From Candidatus Melainabacteria bacterium 17Bon1m (GTDB taxonomy: Bacteria; Cyanobacteriota; Vampirovibrionia; Obscuribacterales; Obscuribacteraceae): DNA of 64,000 nt. The position numbers and the translations under genes are program-made. The notes beneath the pieces were generated by a model that worked only from the letters and a program-made list of their open reading frames with translations, did no database searches and was not told where the DNA came from. Positions 4,078 to 57,622 of the stretch are shown piece by piece. The stretch's first letter is position 1. Every line of letters starts with the position of its first letter. The stretch lies in NCBI GenBank assembly GCA_032128875.1, contig JAVLKG010000017.1, forward strand, positions 1 through 64,000, given 5' to 3'.

Positions 4078-4759
4078 CTAGTTTTTTGTTCTCTTCCCGT
4101 AACCTCATTACTCTAAGTAGCTCCTCGGGAGTTAGGAGCTTATCCAGCGCAACCGTTTTGTTGTTTTCCACTTGTTTCAGTGAACCTGGAAGATATTTCC
4201 AGAAACAGCAATTTTTCAGTGTTAGAGCTTCTTGAGCGCTATTTACCCAGTTGTCGTCACCTTTTTCATGCAACCAACAAACAATCAGAATGCAAGGCAC
4301 GCCTGCACCTTGTTCCCCTTCCGCTTCGGCGTTGTAGTCGACAATTTTGTTATAAGCGTCAGGCGTCATCAGATAAGTAACATCGCCGTTTTTCTTTACT
4401 GACACCCGCCTTGAACTCGCTTTCAATTGAAACGCAAGAGGAAAGGCGCCGTTTCGCTGCTTGCCATTGATACTTTTGACGAGCTTGAAAAGCCCATCAT
4501 GGCCCTGATCCTGATTGTCCTTTGTGATAGTAATCCCGGCACGAGCAGCTATGGCCGTCACATGTGCGATACTTATCTGTTCTTTGATTGCATCTTCATT
4601 TAACCCGGTCCAAAGTGTCAAGCCAGGCTTCTTTTCTTTGGCTGCAGGCTGTGTTGTTTTTTTATCGCTGAAACTGGATGTTTCTTTGACTTTATTGTCG
4701 CTACTATCTTTCATCGATGAAGCCGTTTTGCTCAGTGGGCACGACTTCATATACCACAA
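4070..4759 (-). CDS. DUF4365 domain protein (PD-(D/E)xK-like)
   Basis: 'KEQISIAHVTAIAARAG', 'DQGHDG' and 'AFQLKAS' motifs match DUF4365. Confidence 0.7.
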   Translation of the reverse strand: MWYMKSCPLSKTASSMKDSSDNKVKETSSFSDKKTTQPAAKEKKPGLTLWTGLNEDAIKEQISIAHVTAIAARAGITITKDNQDQGHDGLFKLVKSINGKQRNGAFPLAFQLKASSRRVSVKKNGDVTYLMTPDAYNKIVDYNAEAEGEQGAGVPCILIVCWLHEKGDDNWVNSAQEALTLKNCCFWKYLPGSLKQVENNKTVALDKLLTPEELLRVMRLREENKKLDG

Positions 4760-4938
4760 TCTGAAAGGTCAAAACCGCTAATTGTTTTCCAAAGTAAGCT
4801 AATGTTCGCGCGGAAAGCAGATGCTAAGTAATTACTTTCACTTGGGTGCCTTTGGTGCGCGTAAAACATTCGAAAACCTTTTTTTGTGTATTTCCGCCCA
4901 GGTACAGCATTTTTCCTTAGATCTGCCGTGCTCGCGTA

Positions 4939-5487
4939 TTACTTTTGCTGCGGTTTCCGTGTTTTCTTTTTGGTTGCCTGTCCCATTTCATAATGTTCTT
5001 TAATGTCAGCGCTATCGATCAGTTGCTGTCCATCAACCGGTTTGGTTGCTCTCACTTTTGTTTTCTTTGGAGAATGCTTCAGTTCAGCTAGATCGATAGC
5101 CGAAGCTGCTTTCCATTCGGAGGCCCACTTGTTTGAGCGTTCTTTGGCTAGTCTTTTTAACTTACTTATTTCCTCCTCGCTGTTGTTAGGCAAATTTCTT
5201 CTCTGAATTTCAAGATCTACTGCAATGCTTTCAGCTGCCGCACGCCAACAAAGAAGCAAGGCACTGATTACTTCGTCTTGGAAAAGACCTATAGAGTCTA
5301 TGACTTGTTGGAATTGCGTACGGACAGTTTCTCGCTTCTGCTCTTCCAGCTGAGAAGTAATCGCTGCTCGAATGAAGCTGGTTCTGCTTTTGAACTTCTT
5401 TGATCTAAAGACTAAATGGTCAATTTCCTTCAACTGCCATTCGGTCAGTCGAATGTGAATGTCCTTGTACTTTTTGGGTTTCGACAT
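4939..5487 (-). CDS. ribbon-helix-helix DNA-binding protein, paralog of 62003..62512
   Basis: N-terminal 'DIHIRL..IDHL..SRTSFIRAAI' RHH pattern; shares 'CWRAAAESIAVD' with 62003..62512. Confidence 0.7.
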   Translation of the reverse strand: MSKPKKYKDIHIRLTEWQLKEIDHLVFRSKKFKSRTSFIRAAITSQLEEQKRETVRTQFQQVIDSIGLFQDEVISALLLCWRAAAESIAVDLEIQRRNLPNNSEEEISKLKRLAKERSNKWASEWKAASAIDLAELKHSPKKTKVRATKPVDGQQLIDSADIKEHYEMGQATKKKTRKPQQK

Positions 5488-5681
5488 AAGTGGATACGAT
5501 TAAACTGTCTAGAAAGTTTCTTTTACAGAGTTTGTGGATACGTTATATACCCTGATTTTCTTTGGCATAGACTTTTTGAGTATGCGACTACTATCAAACA
5601 ACGGCAGTAACGGCTGCCTTCGTAAGCACTTACATGGCGATTGAGAATAGGATTCTCGACGCTGACACCAAGGAGGTTGAA

Positions 5682-5750
5682 ATGCAAGAATTGATTGCGT
5701 TATTCGCACTGATAACTGTATGGACGGCTCTAATATTGCGAACTCACTGA
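5682..5750 (+). CDS. 22-aa hydrophobic peptide MQELIALFALITVWTALILRTH (type I toxin-like)
   Basis: AAGGAGG at 5670-5676, ATG at 5682, TGA at 5748-5750; homologous peptide at 62744..62815. Not in the ORF track. Confidence 0.75.
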   Translation: MQELIALFALITVWTALILRTH

Positions 5751-5764
5751 TCAACTGAACTTAA

Positions 5765-5788
5765 GGGCAGGCGCTCGAGAGCCTGCCC
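5765..5788. terminator. intrinsic terminator hairpin between convergent genes
   Basis: GGGCAGGC-N8-GCCTGCCC. Confidence 0.65.
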
Positions 5789-5809
5789 CATTTCTCTCAG
5801 CAAGCTATC

Positions 5810-6676
5810 TTATGATTTAAAGTCAAAAATCAAACGCAAAGCACGTTGATTTTCAAACAATGGGAAATTGGGTTCACGTCGAACGGCGTTCATCAATTCC
5901 CAATAACAATGTGAACCAATCCTAGTCGCACATTCCTTTGGTACATTGAACCCGTATTGTCTTACGCCCATATATGGCTCTTTCCAAAAGAAACTTCTTT
6001 CGAATTCTTCACGAATATAGCGATAAAGTCCCCAGCGAAGTTCGTTCAAGAGATTGACAATTGATTTCTCATTTTGATAGTAAACAATCAAAAACCACTC
6101 CAATAACTCTGGAAGTATCATGAATACTTCGTCTATGCCAATATCAATGTCGTTTTCCTTAAACACTTTGACTAAAGCTCTCGCATCTATTTCTAGCCTA
6201 GAAAAACTGTGTTTTACATGATTACCGCATAGCAAGAGAAGAGTTTTCGGATCTATTTTGATGGTGGCATGTCGATCGATAGTGGGTAACCACATATCAT
6301 TAAGGACGAATTTCTCACCAAAAAACTTGTCGATATTATCAATAGCCTTTTTCAACGGCTTAACTTCTGTAGAGAGTAAAGGTTTTTCCACCACCCTTGT
6401 GAGCAGTCGCATAAAGCTTTCTGTTTTGTCCTTTTCGGTCATGCCCGGTCTGAAAGCTTCGTATCGTGGCGCTGATAAAAAATCTGCGAATAGTACGTGA
6501 AATAAGCGTCTTTGCGCATCATTTTGGAACATCACAGTTCCTTCCTTGAAATAGTCCATTTCAAGTTTGTCGTAATTAACCAGGTCAAGAATCAATTCCC
6601 ATGCTGCAAGTAGCAGCATTACTTCCTTTTCCAGTTCTGAGTATTTTGTTTTGGAAACCGACTGCATTGAAATCAT
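5810..6676 (-). CDS. hypothetical protein
   Basis: 288 aa ORF starting 2 nt after the recombinase stop; no family recognised. Confidence 0.65.
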   Translation of the reverse strand: MISMQSVSKTKYSELEKEVMLLLAAWELILDLVNYDKLEMDYFKEGTVMFQNDAQRRLFHVLFADFLSAPRYEAFRPGMTEKDKTESFMRLLTRVVEKPLLSTEVKPLKKAIDNIDKFFGEKFVLNDMWLPTIDRHATIKIDPKTLLLLCGNHVKHSFSRLEIDARALVKVFKENDIDIGIDEVFMILPELLEWFLIVYYQNEKSIVNLLNELRWGLYRYIREEFERSFFWKEPYMGVRQYGFNVPKECATRIGSHCYWELMNAVRREPNFPLFENQRALRLIFDFKS

Positions 6677-48013: not shown

Positions 48014-48353
48014 GGGTGCGCTAGTCAGTGACCTGATGCTGGACTCTCTAGTTTTGTTCAGCATTTTTTGATTTTTTGTGCTCAGGCTCAACGGACTTCT
48101 TTTCACCTCCCCTCACGACGACGCGGTGAGCGACAAGAGGCGAGAAAGCGTCTTCAAATGGATTTCGTGGGTATAACCGTCTGTTTGAAAAATTTTTCTG
48201 AGACGTCATCCGGGGCGTTAGAGGAGCGTGTATCAGGCAAGAGAGAAACTATGTTCATTGAAGTAAGGAGCAAAGAAAGTTGACAGGAGTTTCCGACAAA
48301 CCGGTATGTTTGGCGTTCCTGATAAAATTTGTTCCCAAATTCCTCGAGGCGCT

Positions 48354-49112
48354 ATGTCGTTTAGTCAGAAAGACGTTGATCGCTTGCTAGCAGAGTGCGG
48401 CCGCATGTGCTGCATTTGCAAGAAGTTACATCAGGTCCAGGTTCATCACATTCAGCCCCTTAGCGAGGGCGGATCTGATGGAATCGCTAACGCCATTACG
48501 CTGTGTCCCAATTGTCATGATGAAGTTCATGAACGTAGTCACTATTCATCTGGCTGCACTTCTCGACGATACTCTATCTCGGAACTGAAACTTCATCGCG
48601 AATTCACCAAGAAAGTTGCTCGTAAAGAACAAGATTGGGCTCCTGGCTCTCGCACTTGGACTGAAGACCGACATTTGATTTTGTTTTATGCACAGTGTCT
48701 GGACCGTCCCGCTTTTCGCACTTATTTCCATCAAGAACTAAGTTTTGCTGACTTCGACCGCGCTTTAGCAGATACTATTACCGCCATCAATACTGGCTGC
48801 ACCAAAGTAGGCGACTCAACACTTCCAATATCAAAGGGCAAAGTATTTCTGATCCATCGAGATTGGAGAGAAAAAATGGACACTGCAGTTGAGAAACTGG
48901 AAAAAATTCGCGACGCATTGCGCAGAGAGCTTGGGTTAAACAATATGTTAATGGACCATGATCGCTTTGGCAGGCATCATTCTCGATTCCACCAAGCCAC
49001 CGACTTGGGCGACTGGATTGATCAAACAAGACAAGAAATTCTCGACAGCGTCAATTCTATTTTGAAGGAATTAGACCAACCGCCACTAAAGGACCTTAAG
49101 GCAGGGTTTTAA
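48354..49112 (+). CDS. HNH endonuclease with C-terminal helical domain
   Basis: 'CCIC..VHHI.P..GGSD..N.I.LCPNCHDEVH'; likely start MSFSQ at 48354. Confidence 0.85.
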   Translation: MSFSQKDVDRLLAECGRMCCICKKLHQVQVHHIQPLSEGGSDGIANAITLCPNCHDEVHERSHYSSGCTSRRYSISELKLHREFTKKVARKEQDWAPGSRTWTEDRHLILFYAQCLDRPAFRTYFHQELSFADFDRALADTITAINTGCTKVGDSTLPISKGKVFLIHRDWREKMDTAVEKLEKIRDALRRELGLNNMLMDHDRFGRHHSRFHQATDLGDWIDQTRQEILDSVNSILKELDQPPLKDLKAGF

Positions 49113-49130
49113 CTTAAGGAGCGAACTTGC

Positions 49131-49952
49131 ATGAGTGATTTAACCGCCAAAGTTGGACTTGCAACCTCGCTCGAAAAGCAAGGAAAATTCAAAGAAGCAG
49201 AAGTTCTGTTCAAACAAGTTCTTTCTGAGATGTCCGATGCTGATCCTCATCGAGCCGATGTTCTGGCTGCAATCGGAGGGGTTCTACTCATGCAGAAAGG
49301 CTATGAAGAAGCAGAAGAATTTTTTGGTGAAGCTCTTTTGTTGCTTGCGCCGCAGGATGTTCATCGTAAATCAGTCCTGGCGGGTTTAGCGGCTTCCTGT
49401 ATCAATCAAGGAAAGGATGTTGAAGCTGAAAGTTTTTACAGAGAAGCCTTGAACTTTTCTGGACCCAGTGTTCATCAAACTCAAATTACGGCAAACATTT
49501 CTCCAAGCATCAGGCATGCGTCCGATGATCAACTAACTGCGAACCTTTTACAGGGTTTGCCATCGAATGTTCGAGATGATGTGATTGAGTCACAAGCTTG
49601 CCTTCAGAACAAATGCTGGAACGCTTTTGGAGCCATGGCTCGTAGGACAGTACATTCAATCTGTGCCGATCTTGGATGTTCGAAGGGAGATTTGAAAGAT
49701 CAGATCGATGAATTATGTGCTCTAAACAGGCTCAAACTTGAAGAGGCCAATAGTGCACATGAAATACGAACTCTTGGCCGTAATGGAGCGCATCCGGAGT
49801 GGGAACCGGTGACTGAAGAAATGGCGACTAGCGGTTGGGGTTTGCTAATCTGGCTTTGTAAGCGCCTTTATGAACAGCCTCCTGCAAGTCCCAATTGGTC
49901 GACTACAACGACACGTCGTTATCGTTTCGGAAATCCTGGAAACAACCCATAA
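49131..49952 (+). CDS. TPR plus DUF4145 (HEPN-like) protein
   Basis: Three TPR-like repeats; 'MARRTV', 'LKDQIDEL' and 'IRTLGRNGAH'. Confidence 0.75.
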   Translation: MSDLTAKVGLATSLEKQGKFKEAEVLFKQVLSEMSDADPHRADVLAAIGGVLLMQKGYEEAEEFFGEALLLLAPQDVHRKSVLAGLAASCINQGKDVEAESFYREALNFSGPSVHQTQITANISPSIRHASDDQLTANLLQGLPSNVRDDVIESQACLQNKCWNAFGAMARRTVHSICADLGCSKGDLKDQIDELCALNRLKLEEANSAHEIRTLGRNGAHPEWEPVTEEMATSGWGLLIWLCKRLYEQPPASPNWSTTTTRRYRFGNPGNNP

Positions 49953-50136
49953 CTGCTTACTGTGATGTCCGAATTTTCTTGTTAAGCAGAAAAATTGTCG
50001 GCGCAGATGCAGCAGGAACAGAAAATATGCATGCCAGGTCAATTTGCGGAAATCCAAGACAATCGATAGTCTGAGAAATACTTTTCTCAAGCATCTGTCC
50101 GAAAAAGCAAATTTGTTCAGAATGTGTGTTGACGAG

Positions 50137-50550
50137 CTACGCTGGCTGTAGAACCCGACGTTCGGCCTCGTCCATCTCACTCTGTTGAACAAATTCTTGT
50201 CGCAAAATCTCAAAGGAATCTAGAAGGAAAACAATCGTTTCACTTTGAGAAAGATCGTATACGGTGGCGATTTCGTCAAACCGCTCTTTTACGGCCTTCT
50301 CGACTTGGATATGCAAGTGAGCGTCATAGTTTTTGCTCGGGCGCCCACGGCCTCTAGTCGCAAGAGACGCTTGTTTTTGTTGGGCGTACATATGAGCACC
50401 GATCATCTCAATGTATTTTGTGAGCGCCGATGGTCTGTCCTGTCCTGTTGAGTGAAATGAAGCTGCTGGTGAATGCACCGTCCACTTGTTGCTTCCTTCT
50501 AGTTTGCGAGCAACTGCCGTTGTGCTCATTAGTGTCGTATTGATAGTCAT
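50137..50550 (-). CDS. RHH-like DNA-binding protein
   Basis: 'RGRGRPSK..LHIQV..KERFDEIA..LSQSE'; GAGG RBS. Confidence 0.6.
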   Translation of the reverse strand: MTINTTLMSTTAVARKLEGSNKWTVHSPAASFHSTGQDRPSALTKYIEMIGAHMYAQQKQASLATRGRGRPSKNYDAHLHIQVEKAVKERFDEIATVYDLSQSETIVFLLDSFEILRQEFVQQSEMDEAERRVLQPA

Positions 50551-50601
50551 GGTTCCTCAACTTTAAATTCGAATTGCTGAATGGTATGCAACGGGATGTA
50601 C

Positions 50602-50937
50602 TTAAAACTGGCTCTGTGTCACTGCCTCTGTGGATGCATCTTCAAAGAGTGATAGGTTATAGTCTGGTTGATGAAGTTCAAGATGAGCTTTGATTGCCCG
50701 CTCTAGTAAGTTGAGAGCGTGGGCTGTAACGGCTAATCGTCCTTGAGCCTTTTCATCGTCAATCACCTGAATAGTGTTGATATGATCACCGTCCTTCTTA
50801 CAGAAGATGTTGAAGATGTCGTTGGATTGAGCATACTGAGCCTCTTCCATTTCGTTGCTTTTCAGCAGTTGTTTTAATGACTCAAAATCCATTACCTTGT
50901 TCCTGCAAATGCCGACTCCGCAACATTTTGGCATCAT
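50602..50937 (-). CDS. hypothetical protein
   Basis: ~100 aa ORF (likely start MDFES) upstream of the RHH-like gene. Confidence 0.5.
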   Translation of the reverse strand: MMPKCCGVGICRNKVMDFESLKQLLKSNEMEEAQYAQSNDIFNIFCKKDGDHINTIQVIDDEKAQGRLAVTAHALNLLERAIKAHLELHQPDYNLSLFEDASTEAVTQSQF

Positions 50938-51115
50938 AGGCTGTTGCTGACAAGGGTATTTATTGTATATACAGACATACCATTTTGAGCTTCTTGATAA
51001 TGTAAAATGTTTGTTAAATCGTATTATTCTGTGGCGAATATTGGATTTGTTTGTTTAAAACCGCTATAATATTTAGTGTGGGGAAATTCCCCTTCCTTAA
51101 TAGAGGTTTTCACAG

Positions 51116-51373
51116 ATGCAGACAACATCAAATGCTAGCAAGCCGCACCCAGAGCGTGATCTGGTAGAAATCAAGATCAACCGTGTTGAATACAAAATTC
51201 CCCGCGGTCCTTTGAAAGTGACTTCATTAAAGGATTGGGCTGAAATACCCCCGGCTGATGAAGTCGAGCAAGTCCGTCACGGCAATCTAGAGCCAATAGC
51301 CGACGACGCCACCCTGGAAATAAAGGGCGGCGAGAAATTCATCTCCCACCCAAGAGATGGAGGTTCCTCCTAA
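51116..51373 (+). CDS. ubiquitin-like (multiubiquitin-domain) protein
   Basis: Beta-grasp pattern 'EIKINRVEY..I.DD..LEIKGGEKFIS'; C-terminus DGGSS. Confidence 0.8.
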   Translation: MQTTSNASKPHPERDLVEIKINRVEYKIPRGPLKVTSLKDWAEIPPADEVEQVRHGNLEPIADDATLEIKGGEKFISHPRDGGSS

Positions 51374-51726
51374 TGCAATTTCCAATCGAGCAAATTGACG
51401 AACTTCGTTCTATATATCCTGACGTGAAACAGATGGAAGAAGGTGGCACACCCTATTTCTTGCTACCTAATGTTTCCCTTCCTGGGGGAGCAACTCCTGC
51501 CACTGTTGACCTGCTTCTTCGTCCTGTACACATGGATGGCTACGATTCTCGGCTTTTCTACTCGCAACAGCCAACCTTTGCCAACCGAACTCATCAGGAA
51601 GCGCTTAATTGGAACGCCCAAGGTGTTCATATGCTCTCGAGAAACTGGTACGCCTTCTCGTGGAGAACAAAACCTGGCCTGACTTTGGCGCAAATGGTTG
51701 CTATGCATTTGAGGGCAGTACGATGA
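51373..51726 (+). CDS. prokaryotic E2-like protein (Cys-less)
   Basis: 'LLPNVSLP..VDLLL.P..GY..RLF..NW..WYAFSW..HL'; TAATG overlap with the Ubl gene. Confidence 0.75.
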   Translation: MQFPIEQIDELRSIYPDVKQMEEGGTPYFLLPNVSLPGGATPATVDLLLRPVHMDGYDSRLFYSQQPTFANRTHQEALNWNAQGVHMLSRNWYAFSWRTKPGLTLAQMVAMHLRAVR

Positions 51727-53027
51727 AAACTCAAGTCAGAATTGCACGCCAACTCTACAACAGAATAATGGCTGACATGGGTAGACCGCATTCGTTTGCC
51801 TATGAGCGAATTGGCTTCTGTCGCGCCAGAATAGGTAATGAGAAGAGCTCCAATCCGATCATATTTCTTGCGGAATATTGGTCTGTTCCAGACGATCAGT
51901 ACATCGCTGATGAGTACGCTGGCGCACGTATAAACAGCGAGGCAATCCGAAACGCGCTTCAGTCCTCGCTAAGCGATGATGTCGGAATCTTTCATATACA
52001 CATGCACGATTTTCCCGGAATACCCTCATTTAGTCCGATGGATAGGCGAGAAATTCCGCGAATCGTTCAAAGTTTGACTTTCACAAATCCTGGCGTGCCG
52101 CATGGAATGCTGGTCTTTGGACGAGATAAGGCATATGCTGAAGTGTGCATGCCTAACGATATCCTTCGACCAGTCGACCGCATAACTGTCGTTGGACATC
52201 CAACACAGGTGCTCAGTGCGCTGCCTAAATTCGCTAACAGTGACCGCTTTAGTCGACAGACTTTTCTCGGTCATGATGCTCCTGAGCGAATTGATTCGTT
52301 GAAAATTGGCATCGTCGGACTCAGTGGTGGCGGTTCTCATATCGCACAGCAGGCTAGCCATACAGGTTTTGCTAACTTTGCACTCTTTGACGCCCAAGCA
52401 ATAGACTGTTCAAATCTGAATCGTCTTGTTGGTGGAACCGAAGATGATGTTCTCAAAGGTCGTCTCAAAATTTCTATTGCCGATAGAGTGATAACAAGCA
52501 TTAATGGCTTAGCTAACACGGAGCCTGTCCCCGCCCGTTGGCAAGACTTTCCGGAATCTCTGCGAAGCTGCGATATCGTTTTCGGCTGCCTTGATGGTTT
52601 CGATGAGCGCCGACAACTGGAAGCTGCCTGCCGTAGATATCTCATTCCGCTTATTGACGTAGGAATGGACGTTACTGAAATGACGGGAAAGCCACCTCGA
52701 ATGGCTGGACAAGTCATTTTGTCCCTGCCCGGTTATCCTTGCTTTCATTGCATTGGATTTTTGAATGAGAGAAACCTTGCAGCGGAAGCGGCAAGATATG
52801 GAGATGCCGGCATCAATCCACAGGTGGTTTGGCCAAATGGAGTCTTAGCTTCTACGGCAGTTGGAATCGCAGTCGACCTAGTCACTGATTGGAGAAAGTC
52901 CAAACCTGGTCTGATTTATAAGAGCTACGATGGCAACAGCGACAATCTTACTGACCATCCACGTTTTGAATACGTCAGTGACCGCGGCTGCCCGCACTAC
53001 CCGCTGGACGCTTTGGGAGATCCATAG
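51723..53027 (+). CDS. JAB peptidase-ThiF/E1 fusion
   Basis: 'ERIGF', 'HIHMH..FSPMD' (JAB); 'IVGLSGGGS', 'SNLNRL', 'GCLD' and 'PCFHC' (ThiF). ATGA overlap with the E2 gene. Confidence 0.88.
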   Translation: MKTQVRIARQLYNRIMADMGRPHSFAYERIGFCRARIGNEKSSNPIIFLAEYWSVPDDQYIADEYAGARINSEAIRNALQSSLSDDVGIFHIHMHDFPGIPSFSPMDRREIPRIVQSLTFTNPGVPHGMLVFGRDKAYAEVCMPNDILRPVDRITVVGHPTQVLSALPKFANSDRFSRQTFLGHDAPERIDSLKIGIVGLSGGGSHIAQQASHTGFANFALFDAQAIDCSNLNRLVGGTEDDVLKGRLKISIADRVITSINGLANTEPVPARWQDFPESLRSCDIVFGCLDGFDERRQLEAACRRYLIPLIDVGMDVTEMTGKPPRMAGQVILSLPGYPCFHCIGFLNERNLAAEAARYGDAGINPQVVWPNGVLASTAVGIAVDLVTDWRKSKPGLIYKSYDGNSDNLTDHPRFEYVSDRGCPHYPLDALGDP

Positions 53028-53177
53028 ACTTCAGAACTGATTCTTATGGAAACCAGCATTTGGCTTTTGGCGACTACCAGCTGGTTTTAATGTTCTATGG
53101 CCGTTTATGAGAGTTCTATATCCATCAATTTGATTTGAGTTTTGATACCTGTTCTTGGCGGGAATACAAATTCAATC

Positions 53178-54593
53178 ATGCAACGCTCATTGTCAGTTCA
53201 CATCGTCAAACAAGGTTTGCAGTCTGGGCTCACCAAATTCTTTGGTCGAGCCACGCGAGCTGCGCTTATCTACTCGTCTGATGTTGCGGAAGCAAATGAT
53301 TTCTCAGTTTACGACACGACCGGGCTTTTGGAAAAATATAAACCAGATATCAGTGCTTATTTCCAGAGCGCTGACGCTGTTCCCCGGCAAACTAAGATTG
53401 ACAAAATTTCCGAGACTGTTCGGACAAGACCCCGACTCTCCAATGACCTTTATTGTTTGATCGAGCAGTCAAACGATGTCTTTTTTCACATGTGGTTTGT
53501 CGAGCGACACCAGAGTGAAAGCCCAGGCAGCTTGCTTGATCAATGGATTCTTTTTGCACAGCTTCCATTGCTTAGGCCGGATGGCGAGATGAACATTGGA
53601 ACGCAAATTGGTGGAGGCCGACTTGCTGAACATGCCGCATTCGATGTTGTTAGAGAAGTAATAATGGAGCAGATGTTCCCGCGCACTTTGGCAGGTGGTC
53701 AGGCCGATGCTGAGATCGTTCTTGAATCGCTTATGGAAATTGCGACCGTCAAAGAAGAAGGATCCGGTTGCTCAGGCACTTTGGCAATCTTTGACCGAAA
53801 TCCGACCGGTCAACCAAAAGTGGACTATCCTCTGAAGACGCCGGTAGCCATCGACAAATTCAAACATGTTAGAAAGTTTTTGACCGCTACCAGTGATGAC
53901 TATCAGCTGGTGGCTATTGCTGGAAACATTGTCGGTTTCTCTCACAGAAAATCCATTAAAAGTCCGCTTTTGGCTTCTTTCGATCGTGGAAAGCTCACAC
54001 TAACCCTGAACAAAGTTCCACTTTGTCAAATTAGTAATGGGACCTTTAGAGCTATCGAAAGCAAATGGACTTTGGACATAAACAACCAAACAAAATCCTT
54101 GTCTAGGCTTGATGCCGCGACGAAACTGCGTGTTCAAGAGTTCGTCAATAAGTTAGTTACAACTGCTCGCAATGAGCATTTTGGATGTACTCTCCTTCTG
54201 GACTCAGGTGAACCTTGTAAGCGCAGGTTGAGCGGACAGAAACTAGAAACTCCTGTTGCATTGAATGAAGACACTTTCAATCTCTTCTCAGATATGTGTA
54301 AAGTTGATGGAGCTGTCCACATCGACGTTAATAAGCTTCACTTGTGCGCTTTTGCCTGTCTTTTGGACGGTGAATCTGGTGATACCGAAGAACTTTCTCG
54401 TGGAGCTCGCTTCAACTCTGCGCAGAGATACAGTCGCAAAACTGAAAATATGGTCGTCCTTGTTGTTTCAGAAGACGGACCGGTCACTATTTTTGAAGGC
54501 GGCGAGACGGCTGCTGTAATTGAAAAGTATGTGAGAGATCACGAATGCAAACATTCTCCACCGAAACTGAGTGAGTGGTTGAACTCGAAGTAA
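53178..54593 (+). CDS. diadenylate cyclase (DisA_N/DAC) domain protein with N-terminal sensor-like domains
   Basis: 'VDGAVHID', 'FACLLDG', 'RGARFNSAQRY' and 'VVSEDG'. Confidence 0.82.
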   Translation: MQRSLSVHIVKQGLQSGLTKFFGRATRAALIYSSDVAEANDFSVYDTTGLLEKYKPDISAYFQSADAVPRQTKIDKISETVRTRPRLSNDLYCLIEQSNDVFFHMWFVERHQSESPGSLLDQWILFAQLPLLRPDGEMNIGTQIGGGRLAEHAAFDVVREVIMEQMFPRTLAGGQADAEIVLESLMEIATVKEEGSGCSGTLAIFDRNPTGQPKVDYPLKTPVAIDKFKHVRKFLTATSDDYQLVAIAGNIVGFSHRKSIKSPLLASFDRGKLTLTLNKVPLCQISNGTFRAIESKWTLDINNQTKSLSRLDAATKLRVQEFVNKLVTTARNEHFGCTLLLDSGEPCKRRLSGQKLETPVALNEDTFNLFSDMCKVDGAVHIDVNKLHLCAFACLLDGESGDTEELSRGARFNSAQRYSRKTENMVVLVVSEDGPVTIFEGGETAAVIEKYVRDHECKHSPPKLSEWLNSK

Positions 54594-54690
54594 GCGCGAG
54601 CTTTGAATAGGCTATTGCTTCTCTCTAGATTATTCGTCAAGCCGGCTGCTTTGTTTTGGCGAAACCACCATTGAAACCTAGGTAGATGGT

Positions 54691-54815
54691 GCGCGCTGTT
54701 CGCCCATTATGCCGCCTCGGCGCCACCGCAGTGCGTTTGGGTAATCATGTCTGACGTCTAATTCTCTGTTCAGCCGCACAGCGGAGCCGAGGCGGCTGGG
54801 CGTTTTTGCAGCGCG
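54691..54815. repeat. long imperfect GC-rich stem-loop upstream of the GP88-like gene
   Basis: CGCGCTG/CAGCGCG, CGCCCA/TGGGCG and GCCGCCTCGG/CCGAGGCGGC nested arms. Confidence 0.75.
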
Positions 54816-54848
54816 AGCTGCTGAAACACCAGCATGAGGGCTTGAGAA

Positions 54849-55640
54849 ATGACAAAGCGTGACTATGGTTTGGAGCTCACGAATAATAGCAAAGTCGGCT
54901 GGGCATTTAGTCTTCCACGCAGTAAGACATGCATTAATGCCACCACTATCTGCAAGAAACTTTGCTACGGAAATGGCATTCGCTATCAATCTGCTGGTCA
55001 TAAAGCAAAGCGTGAGCGCAACTTTCGCACTATTCAATTTCTTTTAAATGAAGGCGGTCCAGAGTTGCTTTCACAGAATTTGTCTCTAATGGTCGATCAG
55101 GCTCGTCCTCGCGATTGGCTCTGTGCAAAGATTACTGCTACTGAAACTGTGATTCCCTGGACGCTTCGCATTCATGATATTGGTGATTTCCATTGCGTGG
55201 GCTATGTTGAAGCCTGGTTTCTAACCGTTCAAAAATATCCAGACTGCAAATTTTGGTTTTATACTCGCAGTTTTGCTGAAGTGGAACTATTCACCGCTTT
55301 GACAAAACTTGCAGCTCTGCCAAACTGTCGGGGCTGGCTTTCAGTCGATTCAGAGAACTTTGAGCAAGCCATTCTTGCAAAGTGCAACACTGAATCTTCG
55401 ATCTGGAATTTTGCCATGCTCCAAGATCCGCAGATGCATGATGAGGTATTGTCGGCGCTTAAGATCGTCGAGACATCGGCCAAAATAATCAATTTCCCAT
55501 ATCATCGCGGTGGCAGACATGTTCAGCCTTTGCATGACAGTATTCTTATCAACTGTCCTGCAGTTGTGGGTAGTATGAATTTGCAATCTAGCAAAGATGT
55601 TGCTCGTCCCTGCCAATCATGCAGCATGTGTTTACCGTAG
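54849..55640 (+). CDS. GP88-like (phage/plasmid) Cys-cluster protein
   Basis: 'NSKVG..FSLP..TC..C..CY', 'RIHDIGDF', 'WFYTRS' and terminal CxxCxxC. Confidence 0.75.
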   Translation: MTKRDYGLELTNNSKVGWAFSLPRSKTCINATTICKKLCYGNGIRYQSAGHKAKRERNFRTIQFLLNEGGPELLSQNLSLMVDQARPRDWLCAKITATETVIPWTLRIHDIGDFHCVGYVEAWFLTVQKYPDCKFWFYTRSFAEVELFTALTKLAALPNCRGWLSVDSENFEQAILAKCNTESSIWNFAMLQDPQMHDEVLSALKIVETSAKIINFPYHRGGRHVQPLHDSILINCPAVVGSMNLQSSKDVARPCQSCSMCLP

Positions 55641-55968
55641 TTTTTTGTGTGACGTGAGTTTGCTGATGTGGCTCTGGCTCAGTTGAAAGCATTTGTTTCG
55701 ATGGCAATTCTCTATCGGTGAATTCTACTTCTTTGTATTTGTCTAGACCTTGCTCACTGATTCTTGCTTTTCGGTAGACGAGTCGGTTTTCGCAAGCTAA
55801 TTTCCCAGGACGTATGGTCAGTCGTTTGCTCAAAGGTCGACCGTGCCTGTTTTTTTTAGCGTTTGATTGTTTCTTTCGCTCGTTGCTTGTCCCGTCGTTG
55901 CTGACTGGTTGGGAGGCGCGCCGTCTGTACGACTTGTGGTGAGTTTGTTCTCGTCGGGCTTCCCCAGG

Positions 55969-56094
55969 GCTGTGTAAAACAAGTGCAAATCCTGGCACAT
56001 CTTGCCTCTTACGCAATGACTTAATCCCTTCGGGACGCTGCGCGGTCATGCACCAGATTCAATCCGTGCCGACCTTGGCGCACTTAAACACAGC
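55969..56094. repeat. long nested stem-loop upstream of ssb
   Basis: GCTGTGT/ACACAGC, AAGTGC/GCACTT, GGCAC/GTGCC and ATGAC/GTCAT arms, with inner TCCCTTCGGGA and CGCTGCGCG. Confidence 0.65.
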
Positions 56095-56111
56095 ACTGGA
56101 GGTGCAGTCTC

Positions 56112-56492
56112 ATGAATCAAATCACTCTCATCGGCAAAGTCGGCGGCGAACCTACAGCAGTTACCTTCACCGATTCGGATAACAAGCTTGCGAAATTCTC
56201 TATCGCTGTGCCTGAGTATTCATCCAAAGTCGACGATCCAGAGCCGCTCTGGATTGATGTTGATGCCTGGGGAAATTTAGCTGAGCGAGTTCTCGACTAT
56301 GTCACCAAAGGTCGCGAAATTTGTGTCTCAGGCAAGCTCTCGATTGTCAAATACAACAAGGAAGTAAATGGTGTCACCGTAAAGATGACTAAGCCTGTCG
56401 TGAAACTCTCGAGCTTTCACCTCTGTGGCAAGAAGCCTCAAAGCGACAGTGCATCTTCAAAACCTACAAAAAGAAAGCGCAATGCTGCGTGA
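56112..56492 (+). CDS. ssb: single-stranded DNA-binding protein
   Basis: 'MNQITLIG', 'WIDVDAWG.LAE' and 'KG..I.VSGKL'; GGAGG RBS. Confidence 0.9.
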   Translation: MNQITLIGKVGGEPTAVTFTDSDNKLAKFSIAVPEYSSKVDDPEPLWIDVDAWGNLAERVLDYVTKGREICVSGKLSIVKYNKEVNGVTVKMTKPVVKLSSFHLCGKKPQSDSASSKPTKRKRNAA

Positions 56493-56499
56493 TCTAGAG

Positions 56500-56523
56500 G
56501 GGCGGGACTTTGTCCCGCCCTTT
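56500..56523 (+). terminator. hairpin terminator after ssb
   Basis: GGGCGGGAC-TTT-GTCCCGCCC-TTT. Confidence 0.7.
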
Positions 56524-56565
56524 CCTCAATTTTTGTTTGTATTTTCGCCTTTTGGAGTATTTGCA

Positions 56566-56841
56566 ATGAAATCTTCGAAGAATCTACTTGCTTTGGACGG
56601 CATCGAAACGTTGTCCCTCACTCGCGAAGAGTGGCAACTAATAGACGTTGCTATTTGTGGCTATATTGCGCTATGGACGCTCAAGGCTGTTCCGCCAAAG
56701 CTGGACAAACTTCAAGCTGTTCTAAAGGCAGTGAGGGCGCTCTGGTTTGAGGACCGACATGAGCGTCGTAAAACTGGTTTTTGTCGGGTTTGCGGTCACT
56801 ATGGCTCTGACTGCACTGGTCGCCAAAGTCCTCGTAAATAG
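56566..56841 (+). CDS. small hypothetical protein with C-terminal CxxCxH..C
   Basis: GGAG RBS, ATG at 56566; followed by a hairpin at 56850-56871. Confidence 0.5.
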   Translation: MKSSKNLLALDGIETLSLTREEWQLIDVAICGYIALWTLKAVPPKLDKLQAVLKAVRALWFEDRHERRKTGFCRVCGHYGSDCTGRQSPRK

Positions 56842-56941
56842 TCAGCGTCGGGGCTGGTCTTCACCAGCCCCTTATTTCTTGTCAGAAATGGCGGTTACTC
56901 AAATATCTTCTCGGTGGGAAAAATATGATTGAGCTTTTGAG

Positions 56942-57622
56942 GTGTGGGTTATGGATCTAAATACAAAAGTTTCTGGCGATTGGACTGCTGGTCATTGGAA
57001 AGCCGAAAGCGCGAAATTGAAACCTGGTGAAGACGAGCATCTTTGGAAAATTGCATTTACCAGGTATTTTCGCGAACGCTTACAGATAAGGTATTTCGAC
57101 CCAATAAAAGCAATAGAAGGTCTCGGAAAGCATGAGGGCAAAGGATTTGCTATCGTCGCCATTCAATGCAGTCTAATTGAATTTTTGGAGTCGACCTATC
57201 AAGGCAAAGCTTACAAGCACATGCCGGTGAAAAAACACTGTGATGGCTGTACGTGCTCATTGCCGACGAAACCAGTTGCCGCGAAAGTAGTCAATGAATA
57301 TCACAATAGTTCAGGGATGTTCACCAAATTTCTGAGAAGCAAAATGAGTGATTCTTTTACAACAAAACAGGCTGAGTCTTTCTACAAAGCTGTGAGGTGT
57401 GGGCTTCTTCACGAAGCAAGGACCAAAGGTGATTGGAAAATCAATGTTGGCGATGGCAAAGGACCGCCAGTCAAAATCACAGCTGGAGAGAAGATTGTTT
57501 ACTGGAAAAACTTACGCAGAGGAATATCGGAATACATCGATTGGTATGAAGGACAACTTCTCGCTAGTCCAGATCTGCAGAAGAAATTCAAGGATAAGCT
57601 AGACAAGCTCTTTCTTGAATAG
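56942..57622 (+). CDS. HEPN-like hypothetical protein
   Basis: 'GFAIVAIQCSLIEFL' and RxxxxH motif 'RCGLLH'. Confidence 0.55.
   Translation: MWVMDLNTKVSGDWTAGHWKAESAKLKPGEDEHLWKIAFTRYFRERLQIRYFDPIKAIEGLGKHEGKGFAIVAIQCSLIEFLESTYQGKAYKHMPVKKHCDGCTCSLPTKPVAAKVVNEYHNSSGMFTKFLRSKMSDSFTTKQAESFYKAVRCGLLHEARTKGDWKINVGDGKGPPVKITAGEKIVYWKNLRRGISEYIDWYEGQLLASPDLQKKFKDKLDKLFLE

Follow-up and report, generated by a model that had tools for sequence, protein, structure and literature searches.

In the type II form of the cyclic oligonucleotide-based antiphage signaling systems (CBASS), Cap2, an E1-E2 fusion, and Cap3, a JAB peptidase, regulate the CD-NTase. Among the bacterial pathways that conjugate ubiquitin-like proteins (Ubl), the type I Bub (6E.1) operon consists, according to the cited parts of Ye, Gong, Chambers and Corbett 2024 (PMC11601596), of genes for BubAB (a Ubl-E2 fusion), BubCD and BubE (DUF6527); the same parts state that 'all Bub operons possess bubE', report a CapH/CapP-like regulator pair beside 31% of the Bub operons, and describe pathways in which the E1 relies on a tyrosine of its crossover loop, and the E2 on a serine, in place of cysteines, and which have been characterized biochemically, with a biological role that is not yet known. 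In Bil, as described there, the thioesters are on cysteines, the JAB protein stands by itself and the E1 is multidomain (PMC11601596). Diadenylate cyclases (DAC) enter defense in DS-2, a system of three genes (for a phospholipase, a cGAS-like enzyme and a DAC) that has been validated and in which, in the cited portions of the reports, the DAC is required for defense (PMC13092281) and mutation of predicted catalytic residues abolishes it (bioRxiv 10.64898/2026.08.10.743927; PMC13092281); DS-2C proteins have the architecture DACNG-DACNH-DAC, and three were reported to produce cyclic dinucleotide in vitro, with cyclic di-AMP (c-di-AMP) identified by liquid chromatography-mass spectrometry for two (bioRxiv 10.64898/2026.08.10.743927). 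Here we analyze a locus where genes of both kinds adjoin: in the window, by which we mean the whole stretch of 64,000 nucleotides from contig JAVLKG010000017.1 of Candidatus Melainabacteria bacterium 17Bon1m (genome G000), a Ubl-E2-JAB-E1 cassette that is a relative of the type I Bub operons is followed by a gene for a DAC protein that, in our alignments, falls into a sister clade of DS-2C/CdaG.

With a probability of about 70%, the cassette and the DAC gene are two separable cargo modules that lie side by side in an accessory region, which is itself probably mobile. This reading is supported by three observations, namely that the two modules rarely co-occur, that each of them occurs alone, and that neither has conserved partner genes.

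Distribution of the cassette and the DAC gene

In each direction, neighborhoods were compared for the 80 top-ranking relatives out of at least 533. A hidden Markov model search recovered a DAC gene at a single one of the 82 loci of the E1 family (L125), or 1 of 84 when two viral E1 loci are included. The E1 family was found at three of the 80 loci of the DAC family (3 of 84 with four further DAC loci), and these three, L001, L002 and L004, are melainabacterial copies of the window arrangement, with 95-98% identity. Among 301 genomes of the class, 10 carry the DAC gene and 11 carry the E1 (E <= 1e-20), and adjacency of the two is limited to G000, G057, G144 and G196, which belong to one genus and are 95-100% identical; in the window's genus, the DAC gene is found in 3 of 12 genomes.

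Within one bacterial family, each module is also found by itself. G157 (95% complete) and G262 have the cassette, with identities of 67% for the Ubl, 76-77% for the E2 and 65-66% for the E1, and neither genome has a DAC match anywhere. The DAC alone is represented by a paralog of 70% identity on contig C8 of G057, and no cassette lies closer than 10 kb to it.

At 80 cassette loci, no additional gene is conserved, and none recurs downstream of the E1 where at least 600 nt are available, as at 62 loci. When 20 co-oriented open reading frames (ORFs) downstream of the E1 were compared to Pfam, 10 matched unrelated families and 10 matched none; the genes at this place in the relatives include those for a PQQ dehydrogenase, an FAA hydrolase, GmrSD, a PLD-helicase, a protein kinase, a DUF4238 protein and a Bro-N protein, along with several unassigned ones. 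The DAC gene likewise has no conserved neighbor in the 80 loci of its family, the largest non-overlapping cluster of neighbors being sensor-kinase-like proteins at 25 loci, about 2 kb off and on either side. The related regions share a backbone of GP88 and single-strand DNA-binding (SSB)-like genes. In the window, the DAC neighborhood comprises GP88, SSB-like, HNH and DUF4145 genes; behind the cassette of G157 come an AbiEi-like, an uncharacterized and a weak primase-like gene, and then homologs of GP88 (53%) and the SSB-like gene (50%); at the DAC-only locus of G057, a GP88 homolog (55%) lies 8 kb downstream. Given that the modules occur apart beside this shared backbone, with varied neighbors, they appear to be cargo that is shuffled independently among related accessory regions.

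An earlier note on this DNA had proposed a CBASS-analogous coupling of Ubl conjugation to the DAC. The counts do not bear this out: homologous Ubl operons are rarely found beside a DAC gene (1 of 84), which that note itself had named as the first finding that would speak against its proposal, the DAC loci with an E1 are near-identical copies, and each module is also found without the other. The alternative offered in the same note, two adjacent units, is better supported by the rare co-occurrence and by the separate presence of each module in one family.

The genome contains a second, canonical DAC gene on another contig (G000:C10:2893-3246, locus L191), which scores 137 bits with PF02457 and presumably encodes the housekeeping cyclase, so that the DAC gene of the window is accessory. 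This second copy, the sporadic distribution of the window gene in the class and the genus, its place among the HNH, DUF4145, GP88 and SSB-like genes, the paralog in another GP88-bearing region, and a closest named family that is an anti-phage protein (NCBIfam DS2_3_antiphage) together make it unlikely that the DAC gene serves host signaling rather than defense and is a chance neighbor of a defense-type cassette. That possibility is suggested by the DACND-DACNH-DAC family at large, which has at least 533 relatives in species-representative genomes, commonly solitary genes without conserved neighbors, the best 80 belonging nearly all to Desulfobacterota-type lineages, where the role of these proteins may be ordinary signaling; it is also in line with the lack of any PADLOC match to the DAC protein. 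Relatives on contigs assembled from reads (P0121-P0125) are 70-91% identical to the window DAC.

Linkage of the two modules at the locus

The Ubl, E2, JAB-E1 and DAC genes, four in all, are co-oriented on the plus strand (Table 1). The stop codon of the Ubl gene (TAA) and the start codon of the E2 gene overlap by 1 base (TAATG), and the TGA of the E2 gene overlaps the ATG of the JAB-E1 gene by 4 bases (ATGA); the JAB-E1 start at 51723 can be considered fixed because 34 aligned homologs begin at the same residue. The DAC gene could start at TTG 53142, which leaves a gap of 114 nt, or at ATG 53178, the start used by the five closest homologs, which leaves 150 nt. These measurements agree with the earlier note, which had described three translationally coupled genes, the first with a product ending in DGGSS, and a co-oriented DAC gene 115-150 bp downstream.

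A consensus scan of the 150-nt gap found no promoter-like or terminator-like site, and the predicted RNA fold of the gap is no better than that of shuffled sequences (z = -0.01). The sequence of the gap has no counterpart ahead of the 70% DAC paralog; there, homology begins at the ATG start codon. In three runs recorded as transcriptomic RNA-Seq (X5-X7), the region 49000-57000 is covered by contigs of 12-24 kb at a uniform depth of about 18-20, which looks like genomic DNA in the library and is no sign of transcription. A lake metatranscriptome (X17) yielded short contigs on the E1 (52375-52530 and 52789-52939) and on the DAC (53281-53431 and 53728-53939); among the matches listed, no record bridges 53027-53178.

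The sole other DAC gene found beside this cassette family is that of L125, which encodes a DACNG-DACNH-DAC protein (4195-5955, 586 aa) and adjoins a divergent pair of Peptidase_M78 and HTH_3 genes that precedes the Ubl-E2-E1 genes (to 9320). The locus is a defense island, with a gene for a RES-domain protein upstream and genes for a DUF4238 protein and two DNA methylases downstream. Because the divergent pair of helix-turn-helix (HTH) and M78-peptidase genes lies between them, the DAC gene of L125 does not belong to the cassette operon. A weak ThiF-like ORF on a Desulfobacteraceae contig (L021:12064-12894, on the same contig as L022; E 7e-11 to the E1 profile) lies about 700 nt downstream of the DAC gene, is cut off by the contig edge, and is probably a gene of the MoeB/ThiF type.

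Several points weigh against separability. The comparison of neighborhoods covered the 80 best relatives of a larger set. Four genomes of the genus retain the arrangement, but since they are 95-100% identical, this retention says little. At L125, a DAC of another type came to lie beside the same cassette family independently; two DAC subfamilies beside one rare cassette family are noteworthy for the idea of coupling and worth a census. Co-transcription of the E1 and DAC genes is possible because they have the same orientation and the 150 nt that separate them contain neither a predicted terminator nor a predicted promoter. Finally, it would not be absurd for modules of these two kinds to be linked, given that DS-2C relatives act together with a CBASS, according to the cited part of PMC13092281, and that some CBASS types use E1, E2 and JAB proteins.

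The last four of these points are also the case for a lineage-specific four-gene system in which the cassette would regulate the cyclase or vice versa, as in type II CBASS, where the CD-NTase is under the control of Cap2 and Cap3; the Ubl might be conjugated to the DAC protein, for example, or Ubl conjugates might be sensed by the sensor domains of the DAC. Such a system is hard to reconcile with co-occurrence as rare as that found in either direction, where the three DAC loci in question are near-identical copies, with the solitary occurrence of each module within one family, and with the position of the L125 DAC outside the cassette operon; moreover, no cyclic dinucleotide effector was recognized in the ten neighboring ORFs scanned. 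We regard a four-gene system as quite improbable. If coupling were nevertheless real, Ubl control of nucleotide immune signaling would extend to a second cyclase fold; that it is unlikely on the present evidence spares bench effort on the wrong unit.

Table 1 Features of the cassette-DAC locus, with positions in the window
Feature	Coordinates	Strand	Remark
Ribbon-helix-helix regulator candidate, 137 aa	50137..50550	-	putative regulator of the cassette
Divergent ORF, 111 aa, no family assigned	50602..50937	-	upstream of the Ubl gene
Ubl (BubA-like), 85 aa, ends DGGSS	51116-51373	+	single beta-grasp domain
E2-like (BubB-like), 117 aa, cysteine-free	51373-51726	+	candidate catalytic Ser96
JAB/JAMM peptidase-E1 adenylation fusion (BubCD-like), 434 aa	51723-53027	+	Pfam ThiF
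Intergenic gap, E1 to DAC	53028..53177	+	
DACND-DACNH-DAC protein, 471 aa from ATG	53178-54593	+	three Pfam domains above cut-off
GP88-family gene	54849..55640	+	Pfam GP88 4.9e-27; accessory-region backbone

Proteins of the two modules and their predicted activities

The JAB-E1 protein can be recognized as Bub-like by sequence. Among the sequences of solved structures in the PDB, Citrobacter BubCD matches it best (1.9e-13 with the protein itself, 1.7e-27 with the family profile, which matches MoeB at 9.5e-17). The Pfam ThiF domain covers residues 181-408, and the E1-E2 models of PADLOC matched the adenylation domain alone, weakly (best 2.8e-6); the JAB half has no match in Pfam (E up to 10), NCBIfam or PADLOC. 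In the family alignment of 35 sequences, E28, H91, H93 and D107 are invariant and constitute an intact JAMM metalloprotease site, with the same residue numbering as that reported for Citrobacter BubCD. Also invariant are the GxGGGG nucleotide loop, R178/Q179, D312, and Y359 within the stretch EAxxYGDAG, which, by its position in the sequence rather than by structure, would be the E1 crossover loop. A cluster of C340, C343, C423 and H425 is invariant as well, and the three cysteines, the sole invariant ones, look like a structural zinc site.

The E2-like protein was recognized by fold. Its structure model (predicted local distance difference test, pLDDT, 92.3) aligns with Citrobacter BubB (9eae_C) over 113 residues with a VIA-align Z of 12.5 and a root mean square deviation of 2.9 A; the next-ranked structures, ordinary E2 and UEV domains, reach a Z of 6.7 or less, and Foldseek likewise places BubB at the top. 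Neither Pfam (E up to 10, including Prok-E2) nor NCBIfam or PADLOC matches the protein, and comparison to the sequences of solved structures, with the single protein or a profile, gave nothing meaningful. The window E2 has zero cysteines, and the alignment of 39 relatives has no invariant cysteine column, the invariant columns being G56, Y57, W80, W92 and S96; among 63 relatives, two lack cysteines and most contain two to four. Ser96 is the candidate catalytic residue and the putative counterpart of S333 of BubB. The histidine that follows the serine by two residues in BubB is not kept in the family, where the position after S96-W97 is occupied by R, K, Q, G, N or similar, and, in contrast to type I Bub, which also has an invariant aspartate, D55 is common but not invariant.

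The Ubl, too, is assigned through structure. The AlphaFold model (pLDDT 80.7) consists of one beta-grasp domain, and its best PDB folds are the bacterial multi-ubiquitin (Bub) structures 9d5b, 8u38 and 9d59 and residues 155-229 of BubA (9ea8_B), with TM scores of 0.65-0.72. Searches of Pfam (E up to 10, including Multiubiquitin), NCBIfam and PADLOC produced no match, and neither the single protein nor a profile had a meaningful match among the sequences of solved structures. The tails that follow the beta-grasp domain vary in the relatives L107-L168 (GGSS, GGAS, GASS, GSSS, GHSS, GSNS and others); the last serine is nearly invariant whereas the second glycine is often missing, so that the JAB cleavage site may not follow a GG pair.

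The assignment of the operon to the Bil/Bub type in the earlier note accordingly stands and can be narrowed to Bub, on the BubCD profile match, the BubB fold and the Bub folds of the Ubl. The first module is a three-gene Bub-like conjugation cassette, in which the JAB domain may trim the Ubl by removing the short tail beyond its C-terminal glycine; adenylation by the E1 domain would follow, which would transfer the Ubl to Tyr359 and then to Ser96 of the cysteine-free E2, in both cases as an oxyester, and the Ubl would finally be attached to a lysine of the target.

The second module would be a sensor-cyclase. The DACN domains were reportedly defined by Galperin in 2023. In the window protein, Pfam detects DACND (residues 17-178), DACNH (193-271) and DAC (342-455), all above the cut-offs; the DAC domain (PF02457) scores 48.4 bits vs a cut-off of 27. 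The DGA motif (D377-G378-A379) is invariant among 25 aligned family members, all 25 of which have R411-F412-N413 at the RHR site, as the earlier note had correctly read from the window sequence. With phenylalanine and asparagine in place of the histidine and the second arginine in 25 of 25 relatives, and with a family profile that finds no solved chain at E <= 0.01, and hence no solved DAC structure, the protein might be a nucleotide-binding sensor or a pseudo-enzyme rather than a cyclase. We find this unlikely: the DGA motif is retained together with the downstream S-E-D-G stretch, and the DACNG-type relatives aligned here also read R-F/Y-N at this site, which marks RFN as a feature of the clade, not a sign of decay. 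In addition, proteins of the DS-2C architecture, which would share the motif, make cyclic dinucleotide in vitro, and DS-2 defense is lost when predicted catalytic residues are mutated, as reported in the cited portions of bioRxiv 10.64898/2026.08.10.743927 and PMC13092281.

Under the reading as two separable modules, the N-terminal DACND and DACNH domains would gate the DAC domain, which, by analogy with the activity of the sister DS-2C clade, most likely produces c-di-AMP or a related cyclic dinucleotide, whose receptor would not be encoded beside the DAC. A single read-through transcript could cover both modules, and neither would require the other. The evidence on DS-2C and on minimal DACs dates from 2026, and a DACND-type relative on an accessory element would broaden the range of DACs in immunity.

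Two divergently transcribed genes lie upstream of the cassette. The product of the more distant one has no match in the Pfam and PADLOC scans and a weak NCBIfam match to the N-terminal domain of a mobilization protein; with a homolog of 50% identity at the equivalent position by the cassette of G262 (L188), it is possibly a ribbon-helix-helix regulator of the cassette. The nearer one, also without a family match in the Pfam and PADLOC scans, has a homolog of 52% identity adjoining the cassette in the same genome. There, a gene for a group II intron reverse transcriptase/maturase (L188:779-2242) is located about 1.3 kb past the end of the E1. At the DAC-only locus of G057:C8, a pair of co-oriented ORFs without a Pfam match (348 and 533 aa; L003:6883-9905) ends 96 nt before the 70% paralog, and the two are possible partners of this DAC copy. 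Farther upstream, the window contains at 48306-49952 a gene for an HNH endonuclease and, 19 nt behind it, a co-oriented gene for a protein with TPR and DUF4145 domains; the pair has weak PADLOC matches to the type IV restriction and TPR models and may be a further small defense unit in the cargo region.

Comparison with described defense and conjugation systems

The window DAC protein shares the DACNH and DAC domains with DS-2C/CdaG, of the DS-2 variant of CBASS, as far as the cited portions of PMC13092281, bioRxiv 10.64898/2026.08.10.743927 and PMC13640721 describe it, and it shares the R-F/Y-N variant of the active site with the DACNG-type relatives aligned here; a match to the NCBIfam DS2_3_antiphage model over residues 169-451 is a further likeness. 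Unlike DS-2C, it has DACND rather than DACNG as its N-terminal domain, its score with this model is far under the cut-off (87.3 vs 630 bits), and its family consists mostly of solitary genes. In further distinction from DS-2, neither a CD-NTase nor a phospholipase was recognized beside it with Pfam and PADLOC.

Like type II CBASS, the locus has E1, E2 and JAB activities adjoining the gene of a nucleotide cyclase. Unlike in type II CBASS, this cyclase has the DAC fold instead of that of a CD-NTase; the fusion partner of the E1 is the JAB domain and the E2 has its own gene, with no fusion of the Cap2 type; a free Ubl is encoded, whereas in CBASS the cyclase itself becomes conjugated; and the adjacency of cassette and cyclase is not conserved. 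No CD-NTase or CBASS effector was detected with Pfam and PADLOC in the ten ORFs at 48306-57622, the rest of the genome not having been searched. That the locus should be a genus-specific unit and a DAC-based analog of type II CBASS, in which Ubl conjugation switches a DS-2C-like cyclase or the sensor domains read the conjugates, with L125 as a second case of a recurrent partnership, is likewise quite improbable. As a separate part of the same proposal, the unfused, BubE-less cassette would be a third type of Bub pathway, not described before.

The cassette resembles Bil (BilABCD) in that the Ubl, E2, JAB and E1 are encoded in a single operon, and differs from it in that the E1 is a minimal fusion with the JAB domain and the E2 is cysteine-free.

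The likeness to type I Bub includes the fusion of a JAB peptidase, whose site is intact, with an E1; an invariant tyrosine (Y359), and no cysteine, at what would, by sequence position, be the place in the E1 where BubCD has its catalytic tyrosine; an E2 with the BubB fold, an invariant serine and no conserved cysteine; and a Ubl with a single beta-grasp domain of the Bub type. Divergent HTH and M78-peptidase regulators similar to CapH/CapP are frequent in the relatives of the cassette, HTH_3 (16 ORFs) and Peptidase_M78 (13 ORFs) being the commonest families among 134 flanking ORFs at 32 loci.

Several features set the cassette apart from type I Bub. The Pfam models Prok-E2 and Multiubiquitin do not match the window proteins, and the E2 and the Ubl are tied to BubB and BubA by fold alone, the sequence searches having found no link. 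Arginine, lysine or glutamine, not histidine, is found two residues past the serine in the E2 family. No BubE/DUF6527 was found with the window cassette or its relatives: DUF6527 (PF20137) was not detected in G000 (93% complete), G057, G144, G157, G196 or G262, and it is not among the 25 families listed, of 55, for the 134 flanking ORFs. The Ubl and the E2, instead of being fused, are encoded by separate genes with a TAA between them, and the Ubl has a tail of two residues after the GG; separate clusters of Ubl and E2 ORFs precede the E1 in 60 and 63, respectively, of 80 metagenome loci, and a homologous Ubl ORF lies 5' of the E2 in 60 of the 80. In the papers that our searches returned, we found no description of this unfused, BubE-less three-gene form, which could be among the 544 Bub operons in Table S1 of PMC11601596. 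With its unfused Ubl, lack of BubE and cysteine-free E2, the cassette is a new, minimal variant of Bub, and a widespread one, which shows what parts the type I Bub operon can do without and gives a simpler system in which to look for the targets of conjugation.

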